Shown: piece by piece, positions 1 to 20,118 of the stretch
How positions within the stretch are numbered: position 1 is the first letter of the stretch
How the letters are laid out: the number at the start of each line of letters is the position of its first letter
NCBI GenBank assembly: GCA_040954595.2
Contig: CM082578.2
Location: forward strand, 11,229,166-11,293,165
DNA length: 64,000 nucleotides
Source of the DNA: Balanoglossus misakiensis
Lineage: Eukaryota > Animalia > Hemichordata
Direction of reading: 5' to 3'
The notes under the pieces: model-generated
Seen by the model: only the letters and a program-made list of their open reading frames with translations
Database searches by the model: none
Told to the model about the DNA's origin: nothing
Program-made: the position numbers and the translations under genes

Positions 1-3000
1 AGTTGATATCTGGCGCTGGCTTCGGACCAGTGGCGACGATTGGTGTTTCCTACATCGACGATTATGCAGGGAGTAAGTCACCTCTGTATATTGGTAAGTC
101 GGGTATTTTCTATATCCACTGACAACCGACCCCACAAGGGGTGCGGCTTGGCCAAATCATGTAAAATGCGTTAATACTTACATGTATTTGTGAAACCATT
201 CTTCTCTAACAAACTTTATGGTGCACAAGAAATTCAACTTTTATCATGGATTGGAACATTTCTTAGGAATCCCGATCGATTACCATGGGGTTCATTTTAA
301 TTTATTCAATTGCAAAGTTGATGCATTGCATTATTTATTTACTTATTTTTTATCGATTGATTGGTCGGTTGATCGATCGATCGAGTTATCAATCGATTGA
401 CTGATTGATTAATCGATTCTATCTGTCTGCCTGCCTGTCTGTCTTGATATTAGGAATTATTGAGTCTACCTGGGGAATTGGAATGCCTTGCGGTTTTTTT
501 GTTAGCGCCGTCGTACTGTTACTGTATGTGGATTTCTACCGTGTTGACATGACAACCTTGGAGATAGACCCCAGTGATTCGCGCTGGGTAGGAGCGTGGT
601 GGCTGGGCGGTATCATTGGGACATTCACCTACATCCTGGCGGCTCTGCCACTCTTCTGGTTCCCGCGGTGGCTCGGCGACGAAAGGCCACGCCCGCCCGC
701 TGTTCACAAGGAAGAGGAGAGCCGCAGTGAAGAGACGGCGTCTGCGCTGACAGCAACCAAGGGTACGTGCACGGCGGCATGGCAGTGGCACTCCCAGGAA
801 AAGTGGGCATCCACGCTTGTTCAACAAAATCTTAAGATATACCTGTTTTCCAGGACCTGTCATACAACACCATTTTAAGTGAAATATTGGAAGAAAATTT
901 GACACTGTGGCAAAACACCCACCGATTTAAGGCATAGGGCAGGGAATGGATTTGTGAGTTTGGAGTAACTCGTAGGCTTTCTAATCCTTTCTGTGGCCGT
1001 ACATGGTTTTAGAATAGGTGCCCCTTTCTTGCTTACACGGACTGTGATGATACATGCATGATGAACAGAACAAAACTCGCCCTTCGCTTTCTGACAGCTG
1101 GTCTTTCACTTCATTATTTCCAGGACTTTTGAGAGCGACGTGGTCTTTAATTAAAAATCCTGTTTTTATATTGACGAATCTGGCAGTCACGTTGTCTAGG
1201 ACGTTCGGTTTCCTCCTTTTCCTTCCAAAGTACTTCGTTAAAGATCTTTACTACACCATCACTATGACAAACGTCCTAATGGGTAAGTAACATTTACTAT
1301 ATTTCCTGACGGACCTTTAAAGGGGCGACGGTCATCTTCTTATGCCCATGTGCCAAACAGAATTCAAAATAAAAATCTCTCAACGGAAATAGTGTAGTCA
1401 ATGCTTTCCATTTCAGGGATACTGTGGTTGTTTCCCTTGGCACCGGCTCGAATAATCACCGGGATTCTCATCAAGAAGCTGAAACTGAGTGTGTACGGCC
1501 TGGTGAAGATGAGTATCATCATCACCTTGGGAGCGTTGTCAATGCTTGTCTTGATGATACCGTTTGGTTGCGAAGGAGAACCGATTGCTGCCTACACTGG
1601 GTATATAAACCCCCCTCCTCATACACACCGATCTTCATATATGTATATATTGATTTTATATTGATTGTCATTTCTCTTTTAACACGTCGGGCGACGGGAA
1701 TCTAGAACATGTATCTCCGAAAATTGGTCCGGGATTTTTGAAAAGATGCTGATCAGTTAAAGATCGGTGAAAAGCAGGACTGGTTAAATCTGCCGATCAC
1801 ACGAGAGTTATCTTGCTTTATTTCTTCTTAGCAATCATCCCGACATGACTGTATCGTGTAATGCGGACTGTGGCTGTACCACGGACCATTACCAGCCAGT
1901 CTGTGGATCTGACAACTTGAACTATTACTCTCCGTGCTATGCCGGCTGTCGATCCGCGAACGCTACGGTAAGTAACTATATGCATGTACCTGCTAAACCC
2001 GGGTTGTATCATATACTGACCAATATACCTTTCAAAAACTGCCATTTTGTGGCATTGTGGAATCCGTTGTCATGGGTAACTGCTATATCAATGGAAAACC
2101 AAATGCGCACTGATTATTTTACCGACTGGCAGGAACGAACCTGTAAGGCTCTTTGAAAAGGTGAATTAGATTCACCGGTACACTTTAACCAATAAATGCC
2201 ACTATTTACAGGGTTTCATCGACTGTCGGTGCCTGTCGCAGGGAGACGCACCGTCGTCACCAACGCCATCGGCAACTCACCCAGGGACTGCCTACAGTGG
2301 TTATTGCTCCTACGAGGTGTGTCGGTATGCAATCGTCTTTTGCGTGCTGCTGTTTGTATACTCGTGGTTCAACTCCTCCACTGTGGTTACATCCACAATG
2401 ATCACCATGAGGTAAGACGGGATCCAGGTAATTTAGATTAAAAAATGTATTTTGTATTTTTTCGCTTCGGCAGTTCTGTCGTTCAGTGTATCATCATCAC
2501 GATTTGATAGTTGGGACATGCGTATAGACTTAAACTAGAATTAACCAAAAATGCGTTTTATTGACCGTAATTTCTGTCTGTGGTCGATTTTACTTTTTCA
2601 GGTCGGTCAGTGAGCATCAGAAATCGTTTGCTTTGGGTTTCAGTCATGCGATGCTACGATTGCTATGTGAGTATACATGTACTTAATATATTCACGTTTC
2701 CATTTTTAAAGACAACTTTCAATCCCCGGTTCTCGTATTCAATTTAGTTCTATGTTGACATTTGATGGTTAATGTGGTGCAAAGTCGTCGTTTCCCAATG
2801 GACTACATGTATTTATGAAGTTGGCGCATTTTCTTTTCGCCGATAAAGATGCTGCGCCTCTAGTGGCGCTTATACGTGAAATTCTGGGTTTGGTAGCCTA
2901 GGTAACACTGAGTTGTCGCGAGTTGGTGCGGCTTGCCTGGACGATAGGTTCAGATTCAATGTCCACATTACACGTACCTCACTCGCAAATCCTTCCGTTT

Positions 3001-3696
3001 TCAGCTCTGATTCCGAGCCCCATCATATCCGGCTATCTGTTGGACACGACGTGTACTCAGTGGCACACACACTGTGGCCGGCGCGGCGCGTGTGTGGCGT
3101 ACGACAACCACGCCTTCCGAACGATTATTGTCGGAATGAACGTCGTTCTAACTGGAGCGGCGGTCGTCATCTTCGCCGTCCTCCTCGGCTATATTCACCG
3201 GAGGAAGAACCTTGGCCGACGAGTGCCGGGGACTGAAGATGATCGTGACCAGGAGCTTGACGGAGACGCCAGTGATGGGCCTGCTGTCACCCAGCGCTTG
3301 TATAAGTTTGAGGTAAGGGTAATAAGCTCGTATACTTCCTCGGGCATAAGTCTATATTGATTTACACATTGCTGACAATTTGAATTTTCCCAGGAGGTAC
3401 AGGTGACAACGTCAAACGTAATCTTCACGAGAGAAATAAAACGACGACACAAATTGTTGAATCAGCTTAATGATTTTACCGAACACCTTTATTTACTTCT
3501 CAGTTGGTGGAATCGAAGAAGAACAACAACACAGATAAGTAAGAGCTCGTGGACTGGTCTAAGATGGGCTCGGAATTCTTGGAAAGTGTTTGCAGCGCGA
3601 GAAGATTACAGGGCTTCGATTTACAATAGCGTCTGTAGATATGAATTTGTTATGGATATAAATTATGGAAATAAAGTATCGACAGCATTTTCATGA
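1..3696 (+). CDS. Solute carrier organic anion transporter (OATP/SLCO family), 5'-truncated by the window edge
   Basis: Exons <1-93, 454-762, 1124-1282, 1417-1600, 1832-1967, 2212-2411, 2602-2666, 3006-3312, then either read-through to the stop at 3360 or a last exon 3394-3696. OATP motifs: IGVSYIDD..SPLYIG, DSRWVGAWWLG, FLPKYF, Kazal-like CNADCGC..YQPVCGSDNLNYYSPCYAGC, IPSPIISGYLLDTTCTQW...CGRRGACVAYDN. The terminal exon choice is uncertain. Confidence 0.93.
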
Positions 3697-4163: not shown

Positions 4164-6321
4164 ATGGGGCTGTGTCGGAAGATCGTTGGCCTGTCTGTCA
4201 TCGCGGTTGCTGTATACATAGGCTACGTATACAATACGAGGGACACGTTTCAGCCAGGTAGGTCAGGGTCACAAACTTGATTAACGTTAAACGTAGTAAC
4301 GTATATAGAGACCAGCTCGACCCGTACGTCAAGACTGATGGTACGGAGTTGGGATGAGACGAACATATACTCATTTGCCCTCCTCGTAAAAGACATATCA
4401 AAACGATGCTAAATGTTCTGTGAACCAATTTTCTGGGAATGCAATGTTAGTGTCACAGAATTCGCTCAAAAAGTTTTTCCCTATGTTATTGTCACTGTCG
4501 CACATGATTTTACGCGAATAAAGGACAACAGGGTCCGACGTGACTTGTCCCTGACTTCTGAAAGTTAAACCCGGGCACTGAACGACTGTCATTCACGTTC
4601 GAAATTAAATTTCTTTATCAGTTCAATGTATTTGGTTTCATGATGTGAAATGTATAATCAAATGTCAAAGATTACTGCGAAAAGTTAATCATTTCCTGAA
4701 TATAAAGAAAATATTTTGCTAAACGTGGACTACTGCGGTACCAGTCCACGACACAGAACACCGCTCGCTTGTTACTGCTTCATACACAGATGCAGGACTA
4801 CAGTCGTCACGCGTTGTGGTTGGGTTGGGGTGGAAGTTGTGTAATTATTTGCCTAATTACTATTTCATTATTTTGCAGAAAGCATCCGTGGAAAACGTGT
4901 TATTGTGACGGGTGCAAGCACTGGCATTGGAGAACAAATTGCCTATCACTACGCTCGGTTAGGGGCCAAGATTTTGATAACGGCTAGGCGTGAAAATCTC
5001 CTCGAAGAAGTATGAAATTATTAAATGTGCCTGTATTCTATTGAATTCACAGAAAAACCTTCATATCAGCGGATACCATGATATTAATTATAAAGGGGTT
5101 AACAGTTTTCTTTGCCGCGGTTTTAATATGGAATGCCCTATTTCCTGAGAAACTACACGGACATGATAACAATGTTGAGTTAGATATAGAAGTAACCACA
5201 TTGTAGGAAATAAATGATAACTTGAATTATTTATGAGGTTAGTTTAGTGTGAGAGAGACAGTGTTACGCCAACAGCTGCAAATATTTGACCACCGAGTTC
5301 TCTAAATAGCTTCGCCTATTGTCAAATCCCATTTTCCGCAGGTCACGGCAAAATGTGTGGAGCTGGGAGCCCAAGAAGTCCACTATTTACCCATGGACAT
5401 GGCAGTGGTCAACGAGACGGGAAAGTTGATCTCGGAAGCTGAGGAGAAACTTGGCGGGCTGGACTATCTCGTCTTGAACCACGCCCTGTACTACTGGGAA
5501 TTGTGGGATGGCAACATGGAGAAACTGCAGAATGTAATGAACGTGAATTTCATGTCGTTCGTCAACCTGGCCACAGAAGCTCTGCCCATGCTGACAAAGA
5601 CCAATGGCAGCATCGCTGTGGTGTCCTCACTTTCTGGTGAGTTTTGATTACTCACCATAGCAACCATAGGCAGTCTGGTGAATTGATTGCTCTGATTGGC
5701 GGTAAAAAAAATCCGCCATCTGGAGAAAAATTAGGGGCCTAAAGGATTTTTTTAACGAAAATAAGAAGTTGAACACAAGTTCTTTGTTTTCAAATTGGTG
5801 TCTCGCATACTTCAGTACATGTATAGCAAAGAATTGGAGGGATTTGCAGGTCTATCATCTGTTATGATTCAACCACCATGACGTTGCATTGTAAATGTTT
5901 ACTTGTGAGTTGATTTGCCCCAATTATCAATTTCTCTTTTTCAGGAATTTTTGCTCTACCATCAATGATTCCCTACTCGGTCTCCAAATCTGCCATAACC
6001 GGATTCTTCACCGGATGGCGACAAGAGCTGGCGTTGAGAAACACAAACGTATCCGTCACGCTGTGCCTCATTGGGTCGATTAAAACTGCCCATGCCGCCA
6101 TGGCAACGGAGGTGTTTTTGAACTTGGAAAGCAGGTTTGAGAGCTTGCCCTCTCCAGATGAGACTGCGCTGAGGATTATACAGGCGTCGGCATCAAGAGC
6201 GGCGGTGCTCATATTTCCTTATTTCCAAAGTAGGAAATGTCAATTATTGAATACCTTCTTCCCGGAGCTTCTCCAGCGGTTGACCTCCGACAATGTTGAT
6301 ACAAAGCATCTAGGATTGTGA
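4164..6321 (+). CDS. HSD11B1L: 11-beta-hydroxysteroid dehydrogenase 1-like SDR, copy A (~298 aa)
   Basis: Exons 4164-4257 (MGLCRKIVGLSVIAVAVYIGY, signal anchor), 4879-5009 (VIVTGASTGIGEQIAYHYARLGA..ITARRE), 5342-5636 (LGGLDYLVLNH, VNFMSFV, VVSS), 5945-6321 (YSVSK catalytic YxxxK). Phases sum in frame (897 nt). AATAAA at 6413. The symbol denotes family-level similarity. Confidence 0.9.
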
Positions 6322-7142
6322 AAAGGCCCGCCACGTGCACGATACTGAAATGAGTTTCAAACTAATGTATAGCCACGCCCGTCTCTACTAATTATGGCTG
6401 CAGTCTTTTCAAAATAAATGTATTCATACCACTTCTGTAAAAAAAAGTATTTCTGTCGCGTCCTTTCTTTTCTCAATGTCCACCTGCTTTTGTGCTACAT
6501 CTTTTTATTGGCATAATCTTTGGGTGTTTGAATATTAAGTTGATTATTATACGACATTGTGAGATCATGATGAACTTCGGCACAACTTTCATGCTTCGAT
6601 TGTTTAAACAAATGCATTCATTTCACAACGAATGCGGGCCCCTGAAAACTCGGTTATTTTATGCCGTTCAGTGACCCGTGTTCCATTCACTGCAGACAGA
6701 ACAAGGTCAGGTTGTCGCCAAAATAAACGGGGGTCCCGATAAATTATGATCGCATTGCTTTCGGGACAAGCCGCATCAGATTGTATGGTTCACTGCCCCT
6801 TTCTCCATGTTCTCACGCTGCTGGCGCTGCACTCACGAAAGAAGCGCAGCCAGCGGCGGGGATATGGCAGGGGACCGCGTGACCAGGCAACAGTATCACT
6901 GAGGCACAGTGTGCCCTCTGACCGCTGGCCATTGACCCGAACGACGTCCAACCAGTCCTAGCCCACGTAATAATCCTCTCTTGCATCAATGATAATCTGA
7001 TAGTGGTATACATGTAGATGTTAAATGATCAACTGACAACACTTGACCTTGCATTTGCAATATACCACACTGACACAACAGGCAAATCCTGGGCGCGCTA
7101 ACTTCACCCACTCCTTGAAGTTTATCGGAAGTAGAAGAAATC

Positions 7143-9169
7143 ATGGGTATGTTTCGGAAGATCCTGGTCCTGTGTATCATCGTGTTCGGCGTTTACATAG
7201 CCTATACTATGAGGGATACCTTTGACCCAGGTAGGTCACACGTGCGCAGGCACTGTCGAAGTCAGGCCCGCGCATTGCTATGTTAAGAAAGGGGGCGTGG
7301 CAACTTGGACGTGGCACGATATTTGTTGAAAGGACAATGAAACCGGTAAAATTCAATACATGTGATTTGTTTGTACACAACGCACCCGACTACGACAGGA
7401 CCTTGGTGTGGTATAGGTCTGTGTGCTTCCGGCAATCACATGCGACGTTAAACATAAAATTTAATTCGTGTGGCCATTATGCACGCAGCTACTTACAACT
7501 CAATGAAATGAATAGCAGGTTATATCACGCAAACTATTAGCCTCATGTTTTATGTTTCATGTCTTCACAAATAATAGTCACCCTCTGAGTGGAGTCAATG
7601 AACTGTCGTGGACCACATATGCTGGTGATGTGACTTTGATCTGCGACCTTGAACACTCGTCTGCCCAGCTTTCTCCTAGCATTAAACAAAATAACCTGAA
7701 TTTAATGCCTTATACCAGGACCAGAAGACCAAGATCAACTTTTTATCACTATTGCCTAAAGTGTGAAAGGGTGGAATAATTTGCAAATCATTGTTGTTTC
7801 CTGTTTTGCAGAAAGCATCCATGGAAAACGCGTTATTGTGACGGGTGCAAGCACTGGCATTGGTGAACAAATTGCCTATCACTACGCTCGGTTAGGGGCC
7901 AAGATTTTGATAACGGCAAGGCGTGAAAATCTCCTGAAGGAGGTGAGTTTGAATTGTTCACCCAGCATTCTCCACAATCTCTCATGATGTGAATGACACA
8001 AATGTCATAGCTGAGTGGTGTGTTAATTTACAAACAGGAAAGTCGCACACGTACAGTTTGGACAACACCGTCCCCCTCATTTAGAAAGTCAAAACCATAC
8101 ATGACTGACTCCTAGTACTCAACTTCCCACTACTGCAGGTCACGGCAAAATGCGTGGAGCTGGGAGCCCAAGAAGTCCACTATTTACCCATGGACATGGC
8201 AGTGGTCAACGAAACGGGAAAGTTGATCTCGGAAGCCGAGGAGAAACTGGGCGGGCTGGACTATCTCGTCTTGAACCACGCCCTGTACTACTGGGAATTG
8301 TGGGATGGCAACATGGAGAAACTGCAGAATGTCATGAACGTGAATTTCATGTCGTTCGTCAACCTGGCCACAGAAGCTCTGCCCATGCTGACGAAGACCA
8401 ATGGCAGCATCGTCGTGGTGTCCTCAGGAGCAGGTGAGGTTGAGTAGTTACCATGGTAACCAATGGGTTGACCAATCGGCTGCAGCTATAGTGATGATTT
8501 TTCAGGCATTGTGAGGCAATGTCAGCTGCAGACATTTTGCACTTGCACAGCTGAAGAGATAGGCTCTTCATGGCTGCAGTGTGTCACCCAGTCTTGAAAT
8601 TAAAGGGACATAAGCTGTAACTTTTGACTTTATTTCCAGTGTTTTTTGTTCTGTGTGTCAAATGCAATTGTTGCTCATCATATTTCAGAAATTTCAACAA
8701 GAATCTGCGGTAGATGCACAAAACAAAAATATTGAAACCATAGTGGAAAGTTACAGCTAATGGAGCTTTAACTTCATTTTCAGGAAATATTGCAGTACCG
8801 TCATTAATCCCCTACTCGGCCTCAAAGTTCTCTCTCCACGGTTTCTTCTCCGGTTTGCGCCAAGAGCTGGCGCTGAAAAGCGTCGACGTTTCGATAACCT
8901 TGTGTGTTCTCGGGCCGATTGACACCGACCACGCCGTCGTGGGAACGAAAGCTTACATAAACGCCCAGAAATGGATCAAGGACGAGGCAGATTTTGCCTC
9001 TGCCGGCGAGGCGGCCGCGCTCATCGTCCGGGCGTCAGCTGCAAAAGCCCGGACTCTCAATTTTCCTTATTTCCACACCAGAATTCTTCAATTATTGAAT
9101 ACCTTCCTACCGGAGCTTGTTGAGCAGTTGGTGTCGAGTAACGTTGATACCGAGGCTCTCGGACTGTGA
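7143..9169 (+). CDS. HSD11B1L: 11-beta-hydroxysteroid dehydrogenase 1-like SDR, copy B with proximal last exon 4a (~299 aa)
   Basis: Exons 7143-7230, 7812-7942, 8139-8433, 8784-9169. TGASTGIG, LDYLVLNH, VVSSGAG, YSASKF. In frame (900 nt). AATAAA at 9333. Confidence 0.9.
8600..8771. mobile_element. Short non-autonomous DNA transposon (MITE, TTAA-flanked, Kolobok-like ends)
   Basis: Left end TTAAagggacataagctgtaactttt; right end aaagttacagctaatggagctTTAA, an imperfect inverted repeat. Lies in intron 3 of copy B, 12 nt before exon 4a. Confidence 0.65.
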
Positions 9170-9644
9170 TGAGTTGATGCTGCTATACAATGCTGCCAGC
9201 TGATTTTCAAGGGCATGCTGTGGACATAAGTGATTTTTCCAGGAAATTCTAAAGCAGAATTAATCAGTGTGTTGCCAGTGAATACAGCTGAAGTGTATCA
9301 TTTACAGTCTCGTTAGAAAAACTGTTTAAGCTAATAAATAAACAATGACACAATTATCTGTCATGGCCACATTTTTCAAAATTGTTTTGCAAATACATTC
9401 AGTGTTCTGAAGTTGTGCAAACGTTGGCATGAACTGCTGTTTGATGAAGTTAAGCACGTCTATTGGATGTTGAAGTTTGAGCTGTCAGATGTGAATAGTG
9501 ATCTTTATAAAATCCTGACATTGTTAAGCTGCAGTCATAAATTTCCCCCAAATCTTCCAGATAACAAAAACTGTATTTCAGCTGGCAGAGCAGCCAAGGA
9601 TCTGTGACCGATCAACAATCCCAAACTACCGTAATTCTGTTGAG

Positions 9645-10039
9645 GTCACGTCGGGCTTCCCGCAATATCGTCGTACTGTGCAACAAAGCACGCCCTCGGA
9701 GGATTCTTTGAGGCCCTGCGACAGGAAGTAGAGTGGAAGAAAATCAATGTGGCCATAACGTACTTCATACCCGGCGTAATAGGAACCGAGCACGGGAAAT
9801 CCATAATGGAACGGTTGAAATCACCCGGATTTGTGAGAACGCTGGCGGCAACCCCGGACGACACCGCTCTGGCGTTGGTGAAAAGCGCAGCTGCGCGCGA
9901 GAAGATCGGGATGTATCCGTGGTTACACGTACGACCTCAGGAGGTTCTGCACACTCTGTGCCATGATTCATTTGAGTGGCTTTTTTCATTGTTCGCCACA
10001 ATGTACCTACCTCAAGTTGCAGAAAGTCAAAAAAACTAG
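9645..10039 (+). CDS. Orphan SDR last exon 4b (candidate alternative terminal exon of copy B)
   Basis: Phase-1 acceptor ttctgttgag|GT, open frame (G)HVGLPAISSYCATKHALGGFFEALRQEVEWKKINVAIT...SQKN*. YxxxK intact. AATAAA at 10165. The GAG acceptor is an uncommon type. Confidence 0.72.
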
Positions 10040-10613
10040 ATGTACTGGTATAAAGGTTTAGTATTGCTGCAATTAAAGTATCAGAATTGTGATTGAAATC
10101 TGTATTTCTCAATTGTGTTTTAACATATTGCATGTCTCGATGTGTATTTGAGGAAGGTCTTTGTAATAAAATAATTAAGCATCGATTCAGCTCTCAAAAC
10201 TTGATTAAATTCTTGTCATTTAAGTAAAAAAAATCCAAACATGTCCTGTTCTGTGCAGGGTCCCTGGGGGTGTTGGTCATTACACCCACCCCACATCCCC
10301 CCCCCCCCAAGTAGTATGCGTTCTGATCAAGTGGGACCATAGTGGCCTTAACGCTATTTTTGTGGTAGGTTGAAGTGTCTTTACTAATTACCATGTGATT
10401 TCTGCTTAATAACCACTATAAAAAAGTAACCTGTTGAACTCTCTTTAAGTATCAGTAACACAAGCACCCCTATGAATGAAAATTTATAGTATTACAAAAC
10501 TACATGTTCAGGAACGCTGCAACAGAAGGGGTCGATATGTTCATCCGGAAAGAGTGATAAAAGTAAAAAAAGCCATCATTATCATAATATATATCAAAAT
10601 CATCTATTGACAG

Positions 10614-11020
10614 GTATACTGGGACACCCTGGCTTGTCTGACTACTCTGCCTCCAAGTTTGCCATCGGTGGCTTCTTTGAAGCCCTGCGCTACGAGTTGA
10701 TGTGGAAGAAACAAGATGTCGCCGTGACGATCTGCATCTTGGGTGCCGTGGACACGGATACCATGACATCTCAATTGAAAAGGGTTACCACCCGAGAGCG
10801 CTACGAATCTTTCCGAAAGATGGTCATGTCGACAGAGGTTGTTGCATTGGACATCATCAAGTCGGGAGCGCGGAGGGACAGGGTGGCCTATTTCAGCTTC
10901 CCTCCAGCGATGATACGCGTGTCCCACATTGTGAACGTCATTGCCCCAAGCCTTTTCGACGGGGTTATGTTGGCTCAGGGAGAACGAGTTTTACAACGTC
11001 TTGAAGAAGACCGCACATAG
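10614..11020 (+). CDS. Orphan SDR last exon 4c (candidate alternative terminal exon of copy B)
   Basis: Phase-1 acceptor ctattgacag|GT, open frame (G)ILGHPGLSDYSASKFAIGGFFEALRYEL...EEDRT*. AATAAA at 11360. Confidence 0.8.
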
Positions 11021-11212
11021 TGCGATATTGGGAGACATAACAATACTTGACACTAACTTTCAAAGGTTATCACCTGTAAGGAAGGGTCCAATGTTACCGG
11101 TTGCTCTATGCATGAAAACACCAATGACAGAAGCTGCAACCTTAGTGTGTCAGACAGTCACAAGGAAATAGCAGAGATATTATGTGCCTTAGTATACGGT
11201 GTTAAGTTTTAA

Positions 11213-11354
11213 CATAGACAGTAGAGGGGGAAATATGGACGCGTCTCTACCCCAGAGAACAAAAGAAATCACACGTCGCGCTTCTTAACCTCTGTTGCCA
11301 ACGGGTCAACACCTCACCTCATTAACATAATCCGATAAACCTCTACTGTCTATG
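11213..11354. mobile_element. MITE-like element with 15-bp terminal inverted repeats
   Basis: catagacagtagagg at 11213 and its exact reverse complement cctctactgtctatg ending at 11354. Confidence 0.7.
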
Positions 11355-11929
11355 GTTTTAATAAAGGGACAAAGTTGCTATTTTTAACCTTTTTGTGATA
11401 TCAAGTATACATGGAATGCTTGTATAGAGTCCCTCATTGTGCAAAATGATGCCAATGCGTAACTTCAAAAGTGTCAAAAATTACCCTGTTTTTCCTTATG
11501 CATAGAGATATTTTGTTTGTGACTTCAGGTGAAATAAACATATTTTATGTAAACATAAGTATCTGATGTAAATGTGCTTTTCTTTGGGTGAGGATCGGCT
11601 GGTTATCAAATATTGACTGAAAATATACAGGTAAATAATTAAATAAATAAATAGTAAATTGGTTGCAACTAGAATATGGCAGCCTCCATCAAACTACACA
11701 AAAAGTTGCATCACAGTACACATATGCTAAGACTTCAGACATCGCCCGCCTTTTTATACATCTTGAGAAAGTAATTGTGCCAATATTAAATAATCTTCAA
11801 CCACTGAAAGACACACCTCTGTCTGTAATGACTACATAACAGAAATGGCAGAAATATACAAACACAAAACTGATTTTGTTTGCAAAAGATATCTCGTTAA
11901 TACAGTATATAATATTAATCTATTGACAG

Positions 11930-12321
11930 GTATAATGGGACGCCCTGGCGCAGCAGACTACTCTGCCTCCAAGTTTGCCATTGGTGGCTTCTTCGAGGCC
12001 CTGCGCTACGAGTTGATGTGGAAGAAACAAGATGTCGCCGTGACGATCTGCATCTTGGGTGCCGTGGACACAGACAACACTATTACTCAAATGAAAAGGG
12101 TGACCACCGGAGAGCGCATCGAATCGTTTCGAAAATTTTTCATGTCGGCAGACGTTGTTGCATTGGACATCATCAAGTCGGGAGCGCGGAGGGACAGGGT
12201 GGCCTATTTCAGCTTCCCTCCAGCGATGACACGCATGATCCACATTGTGAACGTCATTGCCCCAAGCCTTTTCGACGGGGTTATAAAAATTTTACAACAT
12301 CTTGCAGAAGACCGCACATAG
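11930..12321 (+). CDS. Orphan SDR last exon 4d (recent duplicate of 4c; candidate alternative terminal exon)
   Basis: Phase-1 acceptor ctattgacag|GT, open frame (G)IMGRPGAADYSASKFAIGGFFEALRYEL...AEDRT*. In-frame 15-nt deletion relative to 4c. AATAAA at 12499. Confidence 0.8.
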
Positions 12322-13173
12322 TGCTATATTGGAAGACATAACAGTTCACATACACAATCAATTTTAATATTGCTCTGTATAAAATAGATCATTGTTTTGG
12401 AAGAATAGACAGTTCGTTTGATGACCCACGTTCCACATTCAGAAGTTCGTGTTGTAAATATCACTACGCTAACATTGTACTTAAACTGTAAGACCCAAAA
12501 TAAAATAACAGGGTGGACAGAGCATGAACAGACAGGCACAAACTTGGCAAATTGTTACCAGTGCCAGAAATATACAAATACAAAACTGACTTTGTTTTCA
12601 TAAAAAATCTCTAGACTGTTCCAGACAGACAACTTGGATTAAAGACTGAACAGGAACTCTTCAACCCCTCACAATACACAAATAATATAATATAGCAATG
12701 TAATATAGCAATGTAAAGTACAAACAGAACTCCACAGGCAGTGTGAGCAATAAACTAAAACATTGACAAGGATTCTCGTGAGTTGTACTGGTATTGTTTT
12801 TTTTCTGGCAGTAAAATGGTAATGTATTTTCAGCAATCTAATCCTGTGCACCTGGTGCATACCTGTTTGAAGATTCAATAGGAGTGACATTTCAGAGAAA
12901 CAACTTTATATATTTTATACCACCACCTTCTATTCAAATTTTCGCAATCAATATTAGAGTTGAGTAAGAAGCTAATAGTACGGTACCAGTATTTATGTTG
13001 TCATGGTTACACTTCAATAACCACATGACTTGTCAAACCATGGTTTCCAAATCATTCAATGCAAATTACTTGTTAATTGCACAAAAAAGTAAATCCTACA
13101 ACCACACAAAATACATGAAATAAAATAAGTAGAAAAGTGTTCATCAAAATATGTTCTTCAAAAATAACAGCTA

Positions 13174-16100
13174 TCAATCTTCTTCGTCCGAAGAGAAAAA
13201 AGCGGAGTCTCGTTTACGATGTACGACCCTGGGCACTTTGGACAGCCTGCTGATGCGTTCGTTCAGTTCCACGGCATGCTTGACCATTTCCTGCACTGCC
13301 GGGCTCTGGATCGTCGAAGGGGTGTTTTTCTGTGGCGTGTTGCTGGCCGAGGAGGAAGGGGTGGTGTCCCGACTCCGCCTCCTCAGGTGGTACCTGCTGG
13401 GTTGGTTTGGCTGTGAGGGGTGAGGTGGGGGAGGGGAAACACGCTGTTACAACACTGATAAATTGGTGTCAAGGATAGACACATACGAAATGAAGAGTGG
13501 AGACCAATTACATATTGGGTAGATCTTTATAGGGACTTGTACAATCACCAGTCTCTCCGGTGAACATAAGATGACACTTCCTTGCCTTACATTCGTGAAG
13601 TTCAGGGGTAAGTATTCCCCTCGCTTGAAAGACATGGTTTTGTTGCAGTGAAAGATTTGCGCGATAGACAAAAAAATCACGAATCATGCCAAACAGGCGA
13701 CCATAAACCTTGTCTGAAGCAAAAATTGACCAACACACCTGCATGAATGGTGATGACAGTGGCAAAGATGTACGGTTTTTACTTCCTTTGGGGCGACCGC
13801 GCCGTTTTGCTGAAGACTGCTCATCCACATTTCCAAGGTCAGAAATGACTCCTGAAAGAAAGTGGTTTATCAGGAATGAATGAATGATAGCTGACAACAA
13901 AAACAAATAGGGGGACACTTCAGTAACTAAAAGAGCATGCCTCGTGAAAATAATTGGGCAGACGATGCTGCATTTGGGTTTTTGTGTATTCACAGAGGCA
14001 CACTCTTGCAATACTAGAGAGCGGCTGTACCCTCAGTAAAAAATAAAAAACGTATTTTGACACACACTCACTGGAGTTGATAAGTTTGGTTACAGACGGT
14101 TTGCTTTCATTGGATACAGACTCCTTCCTTTCAGCATCTTTTGGAGTGCCGAGTCTGGACGTCGATTCGTCTCTTGCAGACACGGATGGCGTGCTGGGGA
14201 CATTCCCGGGTTCGGAGGTGCTCTCATGTTCGGGTATGGTGGGAATGTTGCCAACGGTTGTCGAGTTGCTTTTGGGTGACGACGGCTTGCCACCACCACC
14301 TACCACTGTCACAAAACTTGTGTCAGAGTCGCTGTCGCTTGAGAGACCATGGCCGTCAATGGCTCGTAATTTCTCCTCTGTTATGGGAAGGTTAAAAGCA
14401 GTAAGAAAACAGTGTGGACTATATACGCACAAACACAACAAAATACTTTCCAAGCTAGGACCAGTTTGACAATAGTGAATGGAGTTTATACTGTGGTTTG
14501 AGTGGAATGCAATACAACGTGGGTGAAAGCAGTAAAAACAGCTAGCTGTTTGCAGAAAGACAGATGAAGTTTGTTCTATTAATCAAAGAAGAGGGAATGT
14601 TAATAAGAGTTATCAAAAGTAGAATCGAAGCCAGTATAGACATCTGGTAGGCAGCTAAATTATTCATACCTGCACTATCAGCCATATCACAGCCAACGGG
14701 AAGCGGTTTAAATAGCCCTTCCACGGGATGCAGCAAGGTATTGCTAGGCAATGGCAATGAACTTGAACTCTGACCTTGCAAGGCAACAGGCAAACACATG
14801 AGAGCTTAAGCCGCAAATGACTATGACGAATGCATCATAAATACTGTATAAACAGCAGGTCATAACCCATTCTGTTGGGGCCCTTTTTGTTGCGTACATT
14901 TAATGTTCCGGCCAGAGCAGAATGGTTTATGACAAAAGCATGGGGATATGCATGAAGCAACCAATTTACTGAGACTTCTGTATATTTCTTTTCATATTGT
15001 TTTACGTTTTAAAACTTTCCATACAGTTCTGTACTTTGATACTTACTTATTGAGAGAAGAAAATTCTTCAATTCTGAGTTCTGTTTTCTGATGTCCAGCA
15101 AGAGGCAGTTGTTGATTTTAGCAAAGTCCTTGTACCTGTAACCTGTGACCAGCAGGAGGATCAACGCCAATAAACAGAAGACTTGTCTGCATAGCCACAT
15201 CCTCTCATAAGCCAAGTCCTGACAAAATGCAATGATACAAAAATGCAGCTTGATACAAATGTAACGGCCAGAGTACTTTATGAATAGAAAAGTTGATTCA
15301 GTTCCTCCAGAAATGGAAAAAAATGGCATGCGATCATGTGTATAAATTTTATTCTTATTATACTATATCTGAGAAAAAAAAAACCATCACATCCATGGAA
15401 TTTGAATCTCACCGAATCATCAGTTGTCCTGGCTATTACCCTCTCAACACATATGTTGACAAACAGCACCAGGAACATCCAAACCCGGGCCCCACTCGTC
15501 CTCGGCGCGGATGTGAGTAGGTATGTGATCACTGCACCCAACACATAGAACAGCAGCGAGTAAAACCCAGTGAACTCGGTCAGCACAAGTTTCTGCAAGG
15601 CGGCAACTTTCTCGAATGCCTCTGAGAACAGCATCTTGTTCTCTTTGGCTGTTGCTTTCATTTCTTCAAACTCTTCATGTACGTCCTTCATTTGAGATTG
15701 CAGCAACTCCCGCATGCGATGTTCGTTGTCCAAAATTTCCTTCTGGTTTTTCAGCGACGTGTTTTGTTGTTGTATCATTTCCTCTTGCATTTTGCCGGCG
15801 ACTTCCAACTGATCGGCGACATTTTCAGAGCTCTCCGCCAGCCTCGAAACAGTGCGCTCGGTCTTCTCGTGCCATATTTGGTTTTGCAAGAAAAAGCACA
15901 GATTCTGCGTGTGTGTGAAGAATTCTGTATAAGCCATAAAGGCCCTGTCTGTAATGTCTGTCGTACACTCTGAAAACTTTTGTTCATATGAACATTCATA
16001 TTTTTCATGAATTCCTAGTTTTTCTAAATGGCAATTTGTAAATGCTAGCGCCAGCCGACTCTGCTCGTCATCGGTGAGTCTCCGGCAACCTTCTTCTACT

Positions 16101-16327
16101 CGTGCAAGGGCGTTTGTCCAGCACATACCATACCTTGGGTTTTTGCCGTACTCTTGTATTGTCGATAACTGCCTTTCCCCACTTTTAAATTTGCTTTGCT
16201 CGTCAGCGGACATTTCAAACCTTGGTCTGTAGCCGCCATCTTCATCGCCTCGGCTACCTGGAACATTACCGATTGCAACTGCCACAGCCAGTACACACAT
16301 CGACAAAAACGTTCTACATGGAAACAT
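13174..16327 (-). CDS. GEX1/Kar5/Brambleberry-family nuclear membrane fusion protein (~626 aa)
   Basis: Exons 16327-15413, 15218-15047, 14774-14670, 14377-14072, 13851-13739, 13443-13174, in frame (1881 nt). Signal peptide (MFPCRTFLSMCVLAVAVAIG), Cys-rich domain CWTNAL..GCRRLTDDEQSRLALAFTNCHL..YEC..C..AYTEFFTHTQNLCFFLQ, coiled coil, three hydrophobic segments, low-complexity tail ending FFSSDEED*. The ORF extends upstream in frame to 16465. Confidence 0.85.
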
Positions 16328-17471: not shown

Positions 17472-19251
17472 CTATAAAGACGCCCCGTGATTAGCTGAAT
17501 CGGAGGTGCCGCCGTAAGCACCTTTCTCTTGTTCTAAAATTTCTATGTGTCGGTGCAACACTTTGTTTTCCGTCCTCAGCTCCTTGGCAATATCTACTAA
17601 CAAGTCGATCAATTTGTTGAACTGCTCTTCGGGCATTCCGCCAGTCTGCGCTCCCATCGCATATGCGCGCGCCCTCGCATCTTCCAGGCGGTCGTCAAAA
17701 CTGTGGTCCCTTATTGAGTCTCGAGACGGACGGGTTGGTTGGCTATCTCGAGAAGTTTCCTTGTCTGTAAGAAAAAAAGATGTTTCAACATATTTTAGGA
17801 AGTGGCATAGCACCGAGTACATGAGAGAGCAGTTCACCCTAACAAAATCGCAATTCTGGTCGTCAACTTTTGACACTGTATATTTCACCTGGGAGTGCCC
17901 CCACCCATTCATCAAAAGCTGTTGCACAGTTGCGGTGACTGCGGTACAACAAAGGGTTATTGTCCATGGGAAGCTGTGTGCTACTAGTATTGTGTACAAT
18001 TTGGCTTCGTGCTAATGCCTGGTATGTCCTCAAAAGTAAACAAAAAAGTCTGTCAAATTGGCATTGTGACATAACATAACGGACCACGCATCTTTTGTAT
18101 TCATAGGAGCATGGTGTTTGGTCAAGTTACAGTACCTCCACACACAGTAAAACGTGCCCATGGCCATAATTCAATGTATGTACTGGAATTTGGAGTTTTA
18201 ATATAAAAGACGTGGCCATGGGGCTGTGACATGTACAAGTAGAAAATTAAATAAACACAACTTCAAGGTCCGCCCCAGTCACACTGATATTATCACTAGT
18301 GTCGACCCCTGTCTTCAAATCATTTTTCGCTTACATATTCATGACTGGCCGAGAATAATGGCCCCAGGTACACAATGACGTATTTACCATACCTGTGTGG
18401 CCATGGTCCCGTTTGCCATTGTCGTCGCCAACGCCATTGTTTTGCACGGCGTCCCAAGCCAAGATAAACGCTGCGATTGTCCAGCTACATTGTCTGGTGA
18501 ACCAAATATCCCCCTGTAGAACCGACTGTGAAATAAATACATTTCCTAGCGTCAATCCTATGACACTTTTAGGAACAATAGTTTTGAAAGTCGTGAGTAA
18601 GCGTGGCGTTTAATTCCTGGAGCGTAATGGTATATACACAATATAATAATACAAGCTGGGTCGGTAACAGTAAGTAACTAGAGACACTTGTAAGAGGCGT
18701 TCCTCGGACCTTAAAATATTTTGTTTAAGAGAATCTAATTGAAGAGACGTGTCCCTTCTCTAAACTATGTGATCAGACAATTATATTCAGAGAGAGAGAG
18801 AGAGAGAGAGAATTCACAGTAGTTTTCAGACTCGAAGATAAGTTGATATGAAAAGACTAAAATTTCACTTCATCATGCACTTTAACTCAGAATCGGAGAA
18901 TCGGACGGACTGGAAGTTGCTTACCACATCCTTTGGGAAATCAATCCTCAGAGTTCGAGTGAGTTCGATGGCAGCGCCGACGAGAAGAACGATGTATATC
19001 TTCACCCTTGCCGTGGATATCCTCGGCAGAGACGTGAACACGAACGTCAAAACGATGGAAATCATGAAGTACCATATCGTGTGGGAGTCAATAATTTGAA
19101 ATGCCAGGACATCCTGGATCTTCTGCAGTTCCGATGTGAAATTGTTGGCGAATGCAACGATATCGTTCATTGTGGCGTTTTCATGATGTACACCATAGCT
19201 GTGCGTCGACGTCGATTCGCGACTGCACTGTTCGAAATTGTCGGGTATCAT
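17472..19251 (-). CDS. Short paralog of the adjacent GEX1/Brambleberry-like gene (TM block + coiled coil only, ~250 aa)
   Basis: Exons 19251-18925, 18525-18393, 17764-17472, in frame (753 nt). IWYFMISIVLTFVFTSLPRISTARVKIYIVLLVGAAIE aligns with LLFYVLGAVITYLLTSAPRTSGARVWMFLVLFVNICVE, and IWFTRQ with MWLCRQ. The true 5' end is uncertain because a possible acceptor (ttcag) lies just upstream of the ATG. Confidence 0.7.
18788..18811. repeat. (AG)n microsatellite
   Basis: Run of agagag in intron 1 of the short paralog. Confidence 0.9.
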
Positions 19252-19699
19252 TTTTTTCTGAATTTTATAAAGTCAATTAATTGCGATAAACAGTTTTTAA
19301 GTATGAGTTTTGTTTTATAGTTAGTTTGAATAATATTCACGGCAGTGCATACTATAAGATTTACGCGCTTATTCCAATCATCCGAAGTAAATAACAGGAA
19401 TCCTCCAATACACAGTGACCCCCTGCCCTTGTTTCAGGCCAAGCTTATCTCCATTCTGATTTTAAGTAGACAGACCCGTAAGTTTTATTACTACTTGAGC
19501 CCCCGTGGAATTCTCCGTAACAGCGCTGGAATAAAAAGTGTGAGACGGGTTTATTAAGTTGAAACGTGGTGGGAGAGGGAGTTTCGGGGTCAAAAGTTCG
19601 TGGAATGTAATTTTGAGGTGTTTGCAACGTAAACAAAATACCACATAGCCCAGTAGCGCAACAGCCATGATCCTATCCTAGCTACAGGTGTACTGGTTG

Positions 19700-20118
19700 C
19701 GGCCTAGCTTAGGGCTACAGGCCTGCTGCGTCGTCTGCTTTCTCGTTCTATCGCAGTCTGAAAACAATTTACACCAGTCACCACTGTCGTGTTTTCGCCG
19801 TGGTCTCATCATACTGACACTGTCAACTCACCAAACCGTATAGACAACACGTTTAGGCAGCTATATTACCTGTTTCCACGGCGATGTTAGGCTACAGGCG
19901 TTCTGTTGTCATGGCTATCAACTGGACGCGACGCTGTACGCGTCACGCAAGGACGTGATTTAAACTCAGTGGAGGAATGTGTATACAATAACAAACAACC
20001 CGGAAGTAAGTTGCAAATGCAGACGCCGATCGAAGTTTTTTTCTGTAAGACTGATTGACAGCGATGTAATATTATAAATACTGATCGCACCCGAAAACTT
20101 GAGACCTAATACGACAAC
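19700..20118. promoter_or_regulatory. Probable ATG7 promoter, possibly bidirectional
   Basis: CpG-rich stretch between divergent genes whose start codons are about 870 bp apart. ETS-type CCGGAAGT near 20000; cgcgtcacgc and gacgtga near 19940-19960. Confidence 0.45.

Follow-up and report, generated by a model that had tools for sequence, protein, structure and literature searches.

The subject of this analysis is a pair of adjacent genes in a 64,000-nucleotide stretch of the genome of the acorn worm Balanoglossus misakiensis (assembly GCA_040954595.2, contig CM082578.2, positions 11,229,166 to 11,293,165), hereafter the window, whose own numbering is used for all coordinates. Both genes lie on the minus strand and are related to the Kar5/GEX1/Brambleberry proteins of nuclear-membrane fusion. 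The upstream one, referred to as the short gene, consists of three exons (19251-18925, 18525-18393 and 17764-17472; 327, 133 and 293 nt) separated by GT-AG introns, encodes 250 amino acids (aa) with 0 internal stops, and is located 1.1 kb upstream of a five-exon neighbour of ~580 aa. Its coding part has a GC content of 0.58 at third codon positions (GC3), compared to a GC content of 0.37-0.42 in its introns. Exon 1 (18925..19251, aa 1-109; 68% identity with the Ptychodera flava ortholog) runs from the ATG through two glycosylation sequons, the last lumenal helix, transmembrane helix 1 (TM1), a basic loop and TM2 to a phase-0 donor; exon 2 (18393..18525, aa 110-153; 89% identity) carries a TM3-equivalent helix and ends in a phase-1 donor; and exon 3 (17472..17764, aa 154-250) contains a variable linker, a helix, a conserved C-terminal coiled-coil-like helix and a TAG stop. 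The three-exon open frame without stops that an initial annotation of this DNA had proposed is thereby confirmed. Gene structure, homology, domain loss and orthologs in three genera give high confidence that the short gene is real; it is intact and conserved among acorn worms, and the 250-aa membrane protein that it encodes has neither a signal peptide nor a Cys-rich domain.

Proteins of the Kar5/GEX1/Brambleberry family have a signal peptide, a six-Cys domain, one to three lumenal coiled coils and two or three TM helices (PMC4291462), three TM helices being typical of GEX1 and two of Kar5 and Brambleberry (PMC10609895, PMC7586128). The neighbour shows the family order of signal peptide, six-Cys domain, coiled coil and three TM helices. 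Its exon 1 (15413..16327) encodes a hydrophobic leader (aa 1-19), the six-Cys domain (16123-15896; C69, C81, C99, C112, C121 and C144), a long lumenal helix, TM1 and TM2 (aa ~253-272 and 280-300), and its exon 2 (15047..15218) encodes TM3 (aa ~312-330) and a post-TM3 coil. Exons 3-5 (14377-14072, 13851-13739, and 13410 or 13443 to 13174) form a low-complexity tail with an RGRP motif, in which the two in-frame acceptor candidates of the last exon, 13410 and 13443, give 580 or 591 aa. On this architecture, and with moderate sequence support, the neighbour can be assigned to the GEX1 type; the Brambleberry-like label of the initial annotation was not upheld, since Brambleberry-type proteins have two TM helices (PMC10609895). 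A search of Pfam with hmmscan found no Tht1 match and no significant family for either the neighbour or the short gene. In the Atlas, feature comparison placed the neighbour with unnamed eukaryote (animal) clusters at 0.91-0.92 and with a Tht1 cluster at 0.89 (197 shared features), the latter serving as a lead only; all 10 of its 10 best named matches fall in one family or clan, at a recognition score under the bar. The single-sequence AlphaFold2 (AF2) model of its exon 1 has a predicted local distance difference test (pLDDT) value of 55.7, with the Cys domain below 50.

The short protein and the membrane region of the neighbour are homologous. Over the last lumenal helix and TM1-TM3, BLASTP gave 24% identity across 116 aa with an expectation value (E) of 8e-9, and the Smith-Waterman score of 103 was reached by none of 1000 global shuffles and none of 1000 shuffles in 10-residue blocks. 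Even for the weakest pair of short and full-length proteins, the two from Glandiceps, the score was reached by only 1 and 2 of 1000 shuffles. The likeness of the TM region to the neighbour noticed in the initial annotation was borne out by profile comparison, in which hhalign matched the short-protein profile to the neighbour at 97.95% (E 3.2e-13, 99 columns, beginning at residue 41). The phase-0 intron noticed at an equivalent position was also verified: in either gene, TM2 and TM3 are separated by intron 1. Intron 2 is in phase 1 in both, the exon 2 lengths being 133 nt in the short gene and 172 nt in the neighbour, and no similarity between the two genes was detected at the DNA level (best E 0.13). 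A third resemblance, the LL.DI.K segment thought to be common to both genes, was not significant (p 0.10-0.20); it is encoded by exon 3 in the short gene and by exon 2 in the neighbour and is not kept in Saccoglossus, and its homology was rejected as unproven. The C-terminal helix aligned to the neighbour slightly better in another register, at 14% (hhalign E 0.002; reversed control E 0.045), a best match that reflects generic heptad similarity, so that homology of this helix to any segment of the neighbour is not clear.

Exon 1 of the neighbour holds the Cys domain together with TM1-2, and therefore a full paralog should carry the Cys domain in its TM1-2 exon. The short gene does not. Each of the four short proteins has at most one Cys before TM1, the three that were scanned (by hydropathy only) have no hydrophobic N-terminal segment, and the N-terminus of the Saccoglossus protein is polar by inspection. 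Upstream, the short gene faces ATG7 (Pfam ATG7_N, E 5e-15) head to head, with an ATG-to-ATG distance of 867 bp, an in-frame stop 8 codons 5' of its ATG, and a spacer (19252..20118, unstranded) devoid of any Cys-domain remnant. A tblastn search with the Cys domain of the neighbour found no similarity in the 44.7 kb upstream of the short gene (19252-64000; best E 1.1). These results substantiate the claim that the <900 bp up to ATG7 contains no Cys-rich domain. They also bear on the idea that the short gene is an artefact or relic, that is, a mis-modelled fragment with its Cys exons elsewhere or a decaying pseudogene. An acceptor-like AG directly precedes the ATG, and the RefSeq model of the full-length Glandiceps protein also begins past the Cys domain, showing that truncated models occur; however, the single-exon arrangement in the neighbour, the empty 44.7 kb, the similar N-terminal length in the window, Ptychodera and Saccoglossus, and intact frames with structured conservation in four species make this explanation highly improbable. 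The acceptor-like AG, together with donor-like sites at 19869 and 19831, suggests an untranslated first exon, with a possible intron in the 5' untranslated region. A CCGGAAG site, which we take to be ETS-like, is present in the spacer near 20001, and the head-to-head layout makes a promoter common to the short gene and ATG7 possible.

The first sequon (N25-A-T, 19171..19179) is 32 aa before the start of TM1 and stands at the same position in the three of three sequences reaching it, whereas the second (N37-F-T, 19135..19143) is 20 aa before TM1 and is shared by four of four. The downstream sequon reads N-F-T, N-F-T, N-Y-T and N-V-T, and the upstream one N-A-T, N-I-T and N-E-S, the Glandiceps model beginning downstream of the latter position. 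Between the window and Saccoglossus, the upstream sequon is kept although none of 17 flanking residues is identical; the neighbour has no sequon at either position. The predicted TM1 (aa 58-76, 19024..19080) has a hydropathy of 1.70 and is an AF2 helix; the predicted TM2 (aa 83-101, 18949..19005) follows a loop with three to four basic and no acidic residues. By the positive-inside rule, this loop should face the cytosol and the N-terminus the lumen, as in GEX1, and the fixed sequons likewise point to GEX1 topology in the absence of a signal peptide. The TM3-equivalent helix (aa 117-135, 18448..18504) is weakly hydrophobic but highly conserved. The short protein is thus predicted to cross the membrane three times behind a glycosylated lumenal N-terminus. 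The C-terminal heptad helix (aa 198-233, 17526..17633) is conserved in all four short proteins. An AF2 model of the P. flava short protein, obtained from a 12-row alignment, reached a pLDDT of 70.6 and a predicted template modelling (pTM) score of 0.34, so that local structure is credible but packing is not. Its helices (15-71, 75-101, 108-138, then, after a disordered linker, 171-196 and 202-240) begin with a lumenal segment running into TM1 followed by two more, the same order as in the low-confidence model of the neighbour. With this model, Foldseek gave no match at E <= 0.001 among 51 in the PDB. Sequence searches of the PDB returned nothing below E 0.05, and for the short protein the Atlas gave no feature match and only structure rows under the bar.

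Orthologs, for which the initial annotation had suggested a search, were found in three acorn-worm genera. A word-indexed search identified a 250-aa protein of Ptychodera flava with 67% identity (one of 147 candidates) and a 209-aa protein of Glandiceps talaboti with 49% identity (two of 988 candidates including the query itself), and Saccoglossus kowalevskii contributes LOC102803861 (258/261 aa, E 7e-54). HMMER with the short-protein profile against 1,835,955,588 representatives gave seven matches at E <= 0.001. Three are strong and correspond to these orthologs (209-261 aa), and four are weak (E 3e-5 to 6e-4), being unnamed pieces on short contigs with GEX1-type membrane motifs, whose retrieval is independent evidence for the homology; at the sensitivity of this search, the short type was not found outside acorn worms. 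Metagenome scans and one viral scan showed no relatives. All named short-protein records are labelled 'uncharacterized', and the two RefSeq accessions of the P. flava protein likely reflect transcript variants. Ptychodera belongs to the Ptychoderidae, Glandiceps to the Spengelidae and Saccoglossus to the Harrimaniidae. In a 10-row tree of the core region, rooted at the midpoint for drawing only, the four short proteins group together (support 100/99) on a long branch, and the protein of the window is nearest to that of Ptychodera (98/95). The short clade is likely older than the split of the acorn-worm families, and the ancestor of ptychoderids and spengelids has been dated to more than 370 million years ago (PMC11175523). 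The view of the short gene as an old, maintained paralog without the Cys domain is thus supported by orthologs in three genera, and neither of the refuting outcomes named in the initial annotation for orthologs and for profile similarity came about. The short clade is 22-32% identical to other GEX1-type fragments, and the tree does not bring it nearer to the full-length proteins of hemichordates than to these; its description as a tandem paralog is therefore based on the adjacency of the two genes and the position of their introns. In Glandiceps, the full and short genes are on contigs of equal size (35,921,338) with non-neighbouring accession numbers.

Conservation among the short proteins is concentrated in the membrane helices and the C-terminal helix, but not in the linker and the ends. 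Compared with Ptychodera and Glandiceps, respectively, the window protein is identical at 36/44 and 28/44 positions of TM1-TM2, 30/35 and 24/35 of the loop and TM3, and 29/36 and 22/35 of the C-terminal helix, as against 36/61 and 12/57 of the linker. Core identity between the window and Glandiceps is 61% for the short proteins and 72% for the full proteins. Six residues (Q46, T73, A81, R82, L89 and E96) are invariant in six of six GEX1-type rows and in all four short proteins, and R120 is invariant in the four GEX1-type rows reaching it as well as in the four short proteins. Moreover, 42 of the 104 core positions are invariant in the short clade. Fifteen of these recur in half or more of the GEX1-type rows. 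The other 27 are clade-specific and include polar or aromatic residues within membrane helices, a pattern suggestive of specialisation and not of a simple or passive decoy.

Among known proteins, the short protein most resembles GEX1 of Arabidopsis, cotton, Chlamydomonas and Plasmodium in its lumenal helix, three TM helices and cytosolic tail (PMC10609895, PMC7586128), the homology itself having been computed against the neighbour and unnamed GEX1-type fragments and not against plant GEX1 directly. It differs from GEX1 in having no signal peptide, no six-Cys domain and only the last helix of the lumenal coiled coil, in the two conserved sequons of its 57-aa N-terminus, and in its own C-terminal helix. 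Its TM helices are homologous to the GEX1 type, yet two defining features are absent, and it is therefore a derivative of the family rather than a member in the strict sense. The likeness to zebrafish Brambleberry and yeast Kar5 (Pfam Tht1, PF04163) is that of the wider family and passes through the neighbour by way of the Tht1 lead; unlike the short protein, both have two TM helices and a Cys-rich domain. A further parallel is the engineered Kar5 conserved-domain deletion of Rogers and Rose, in which the membrane module is kept and the Cys-rich region is gone, although this is a laboratory mutant retaining its signal peptide and a long lumenal part, whereas the short protein is natural and conserved (PMC4291462). 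Kar5 without this domain is well expressed and located at the nuclear envelope, but is not enriched at the fusion site and does not support fusion; modest recruitment of Prm3 remains, for which the TM region is needed (PMC4291462). The text of that paper makes no mention of 'dominant' for this deletion.

From this behaviour, a natural form without the Cys domain could be a non-fusing, partner-recruiting module, and we propose, with a probability of about 45%, that the short protein, itself non-fusing, assists or damps the fusion of nuclear envelopes that depends on GEX1. What favours this role is the retention of the family-invariant membrane residues and the linkage of the two genes. A partial duplication of an ancestral GEX1-type gene would have cut exon 1 inside the lumenal coil, and the copy would have changed fast until constraint set in. 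As an uncleaved N-out anchor, TM1 would give the order lumen, TM1, basic cytosolic loop, TM2, TM3 and cytosolic tail as in GEX1. By analogy with Kar5, the protein would still be located at the nuclear envelope, where its helices would allow it to recruit membrane partners; lacking the Cys domain, however, it would neither concentrate at the fusion site nor link membranes. It may then tune when and where GEX1 complexes form, either by joining them or by competing for a membrane partner, with the C-terminal helix as a docking site of its own.

Several observations weigh against such a role. Core identity of the short clade to hemichordate full-length proteins is no more than 16-25%, and the clade sits on a long stem; TM3 falls under the hydropathy cut-off in two of three short proteins tested; and two features of the neighbour, the Y.YKD motif after TM3 and the basic RGRP tail, are absent. 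According to PMC7586128, which cites a study of 2011, dimers of plant GEX1 form by way of the cytoplasmic domain, a part not shared by the short protein. The short gene may share a housekeeping promoter with ATG7, the 27 clade-specific positions are as compatible with a new role as with that of a helper, and the functional step leans on yeast Kar5, a distant relative. Much of this evidence would also suit a neofunctionalised protein, in which the three-helix GEX1 module was recycled as an acorn-worm-specific endoplasmic reticulum or cell-surface glycoprotein that takes no part in nuclear fusion, binds partners of its own through clade-specific membrane residues and the C-terminal helix, and is possibly expressed broadly from the ATG7 promoter. 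We regard this alternative as nearly as probable as the accessory or damper role: the long stem followed by strong conservation, the clade-specific residues, the sequons absent from the neighbour, the C-terminal helix with no clear homolog there, the head-to-head layout with ATG7 and the unshared dimerising tail are all consistent with it, but it would not predict that the residues invariant across the GEX1 family are all kept, nor the linkage to the full gene in the window and the equal-sized contigs in Glandiceps.

The accessory or damper role could take a more specific form, in which the short protein is a dedicated GEX1 subunit without the Cys domain, co-assembling with the full-length protein and gating pronuclear or karyomere fusion; this form is rather doubtful. 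Co-folding of the Glandiceps full-length (aa 35-190) and short (aa 1-200) proteins, run without use of alignments, gave a score of 0.01, which counts neither for nor against such co-assembly. Since Kar5 functions are separable by domain and Kar5 is found in both nuclear membranes (PMC4291462), one may also imagine a two-part system, the short protein being the obligatory membrane and cytosolic half for the inner or outer membrane and the full-length protein the Cys-rich link. The absence from the short protein of the RGRP tail, which could hold the neighbour at the chromatin side if it is, as we presume, AT-hook-like, would agree with this division of labour, but the neighbour keeps a complete three-TM module under constraint (39 of 48 residues of TM1-2 identical to the Glandiceps full-length protein), and the arrangement is improbable.

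The neighbour shows further features of its own. The RGRP motif (aa 482, in the basic patch encoded by 13739-13851, minus strand) is kept in the full-length tails of the window and Glandiceps and absent from the short proteins; we take the patch to resemble an AT-hook, and it could tie animal GEX1 to chromatin. The last helix and the C-terminal FFSSD-acidic end (13174-13300, minus strand) are also conserved in Glandiceps, the latter presumably resembling a phospho-FFAT motif. The RefSeq model of the Glandiceps full-length ortholog, LOC144442814, begins at a Met matching M180 of the window protein and consequently contains neither signal peptide nor Cys domain, either by annotation error or by a second real loss. 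Elsewhere in the window, exons of an OATP/SLCO transporter gene (~400-3400) and a tandem cluster of short-chain dehydrogenase gene segments (~4800-12350) with 70-95% DNA identity, indicating recent duplications, lie on the plus strand. Rfam gave no match in the 12-21 kb part of the window.

No description of the short gene was found in the literature, although the supplements of the two founding papers may list invertebrate paralogs. Searches pairing GEX1 with hemichordate or Saccoglossus with karyomere returned nothing, and none of 32 papers on Brambleberry, judged by title or the start of the abstract, deals with a truncated paralog. How Kar5, GEX1 and Brambleberry bring about the fusion of nuclear membranes has yet to be settled (PMC4291462). 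The Cys-rich domain has been described as the one conserved part of the family, present in every ortholog, and the short clade dropped it. A natural clade that has kept the invariant membrane residues without this domain, likely for hundreds of millions of years, offers a ready-made separation of function, and it points to Q46, T73, R77, A81, R82, L89, E96 and R120 as a core for mutation in yeast, plant and fish. The short protein is a candidate inhibitor or accessory of nuclear-envelope fusion, although the reach of this proposal is limited, the short type having been found only in acorn worms. Because loss of GEX1 is used for haploid induction in crops (PMC13763932), a natural damper would also have practical interest. 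If the short protein is indeed a gating subunit, it would be the first regulator in nature to derive from the Kar5/GEX1 family itself, and the membrane module would have a conserved activity of its own.
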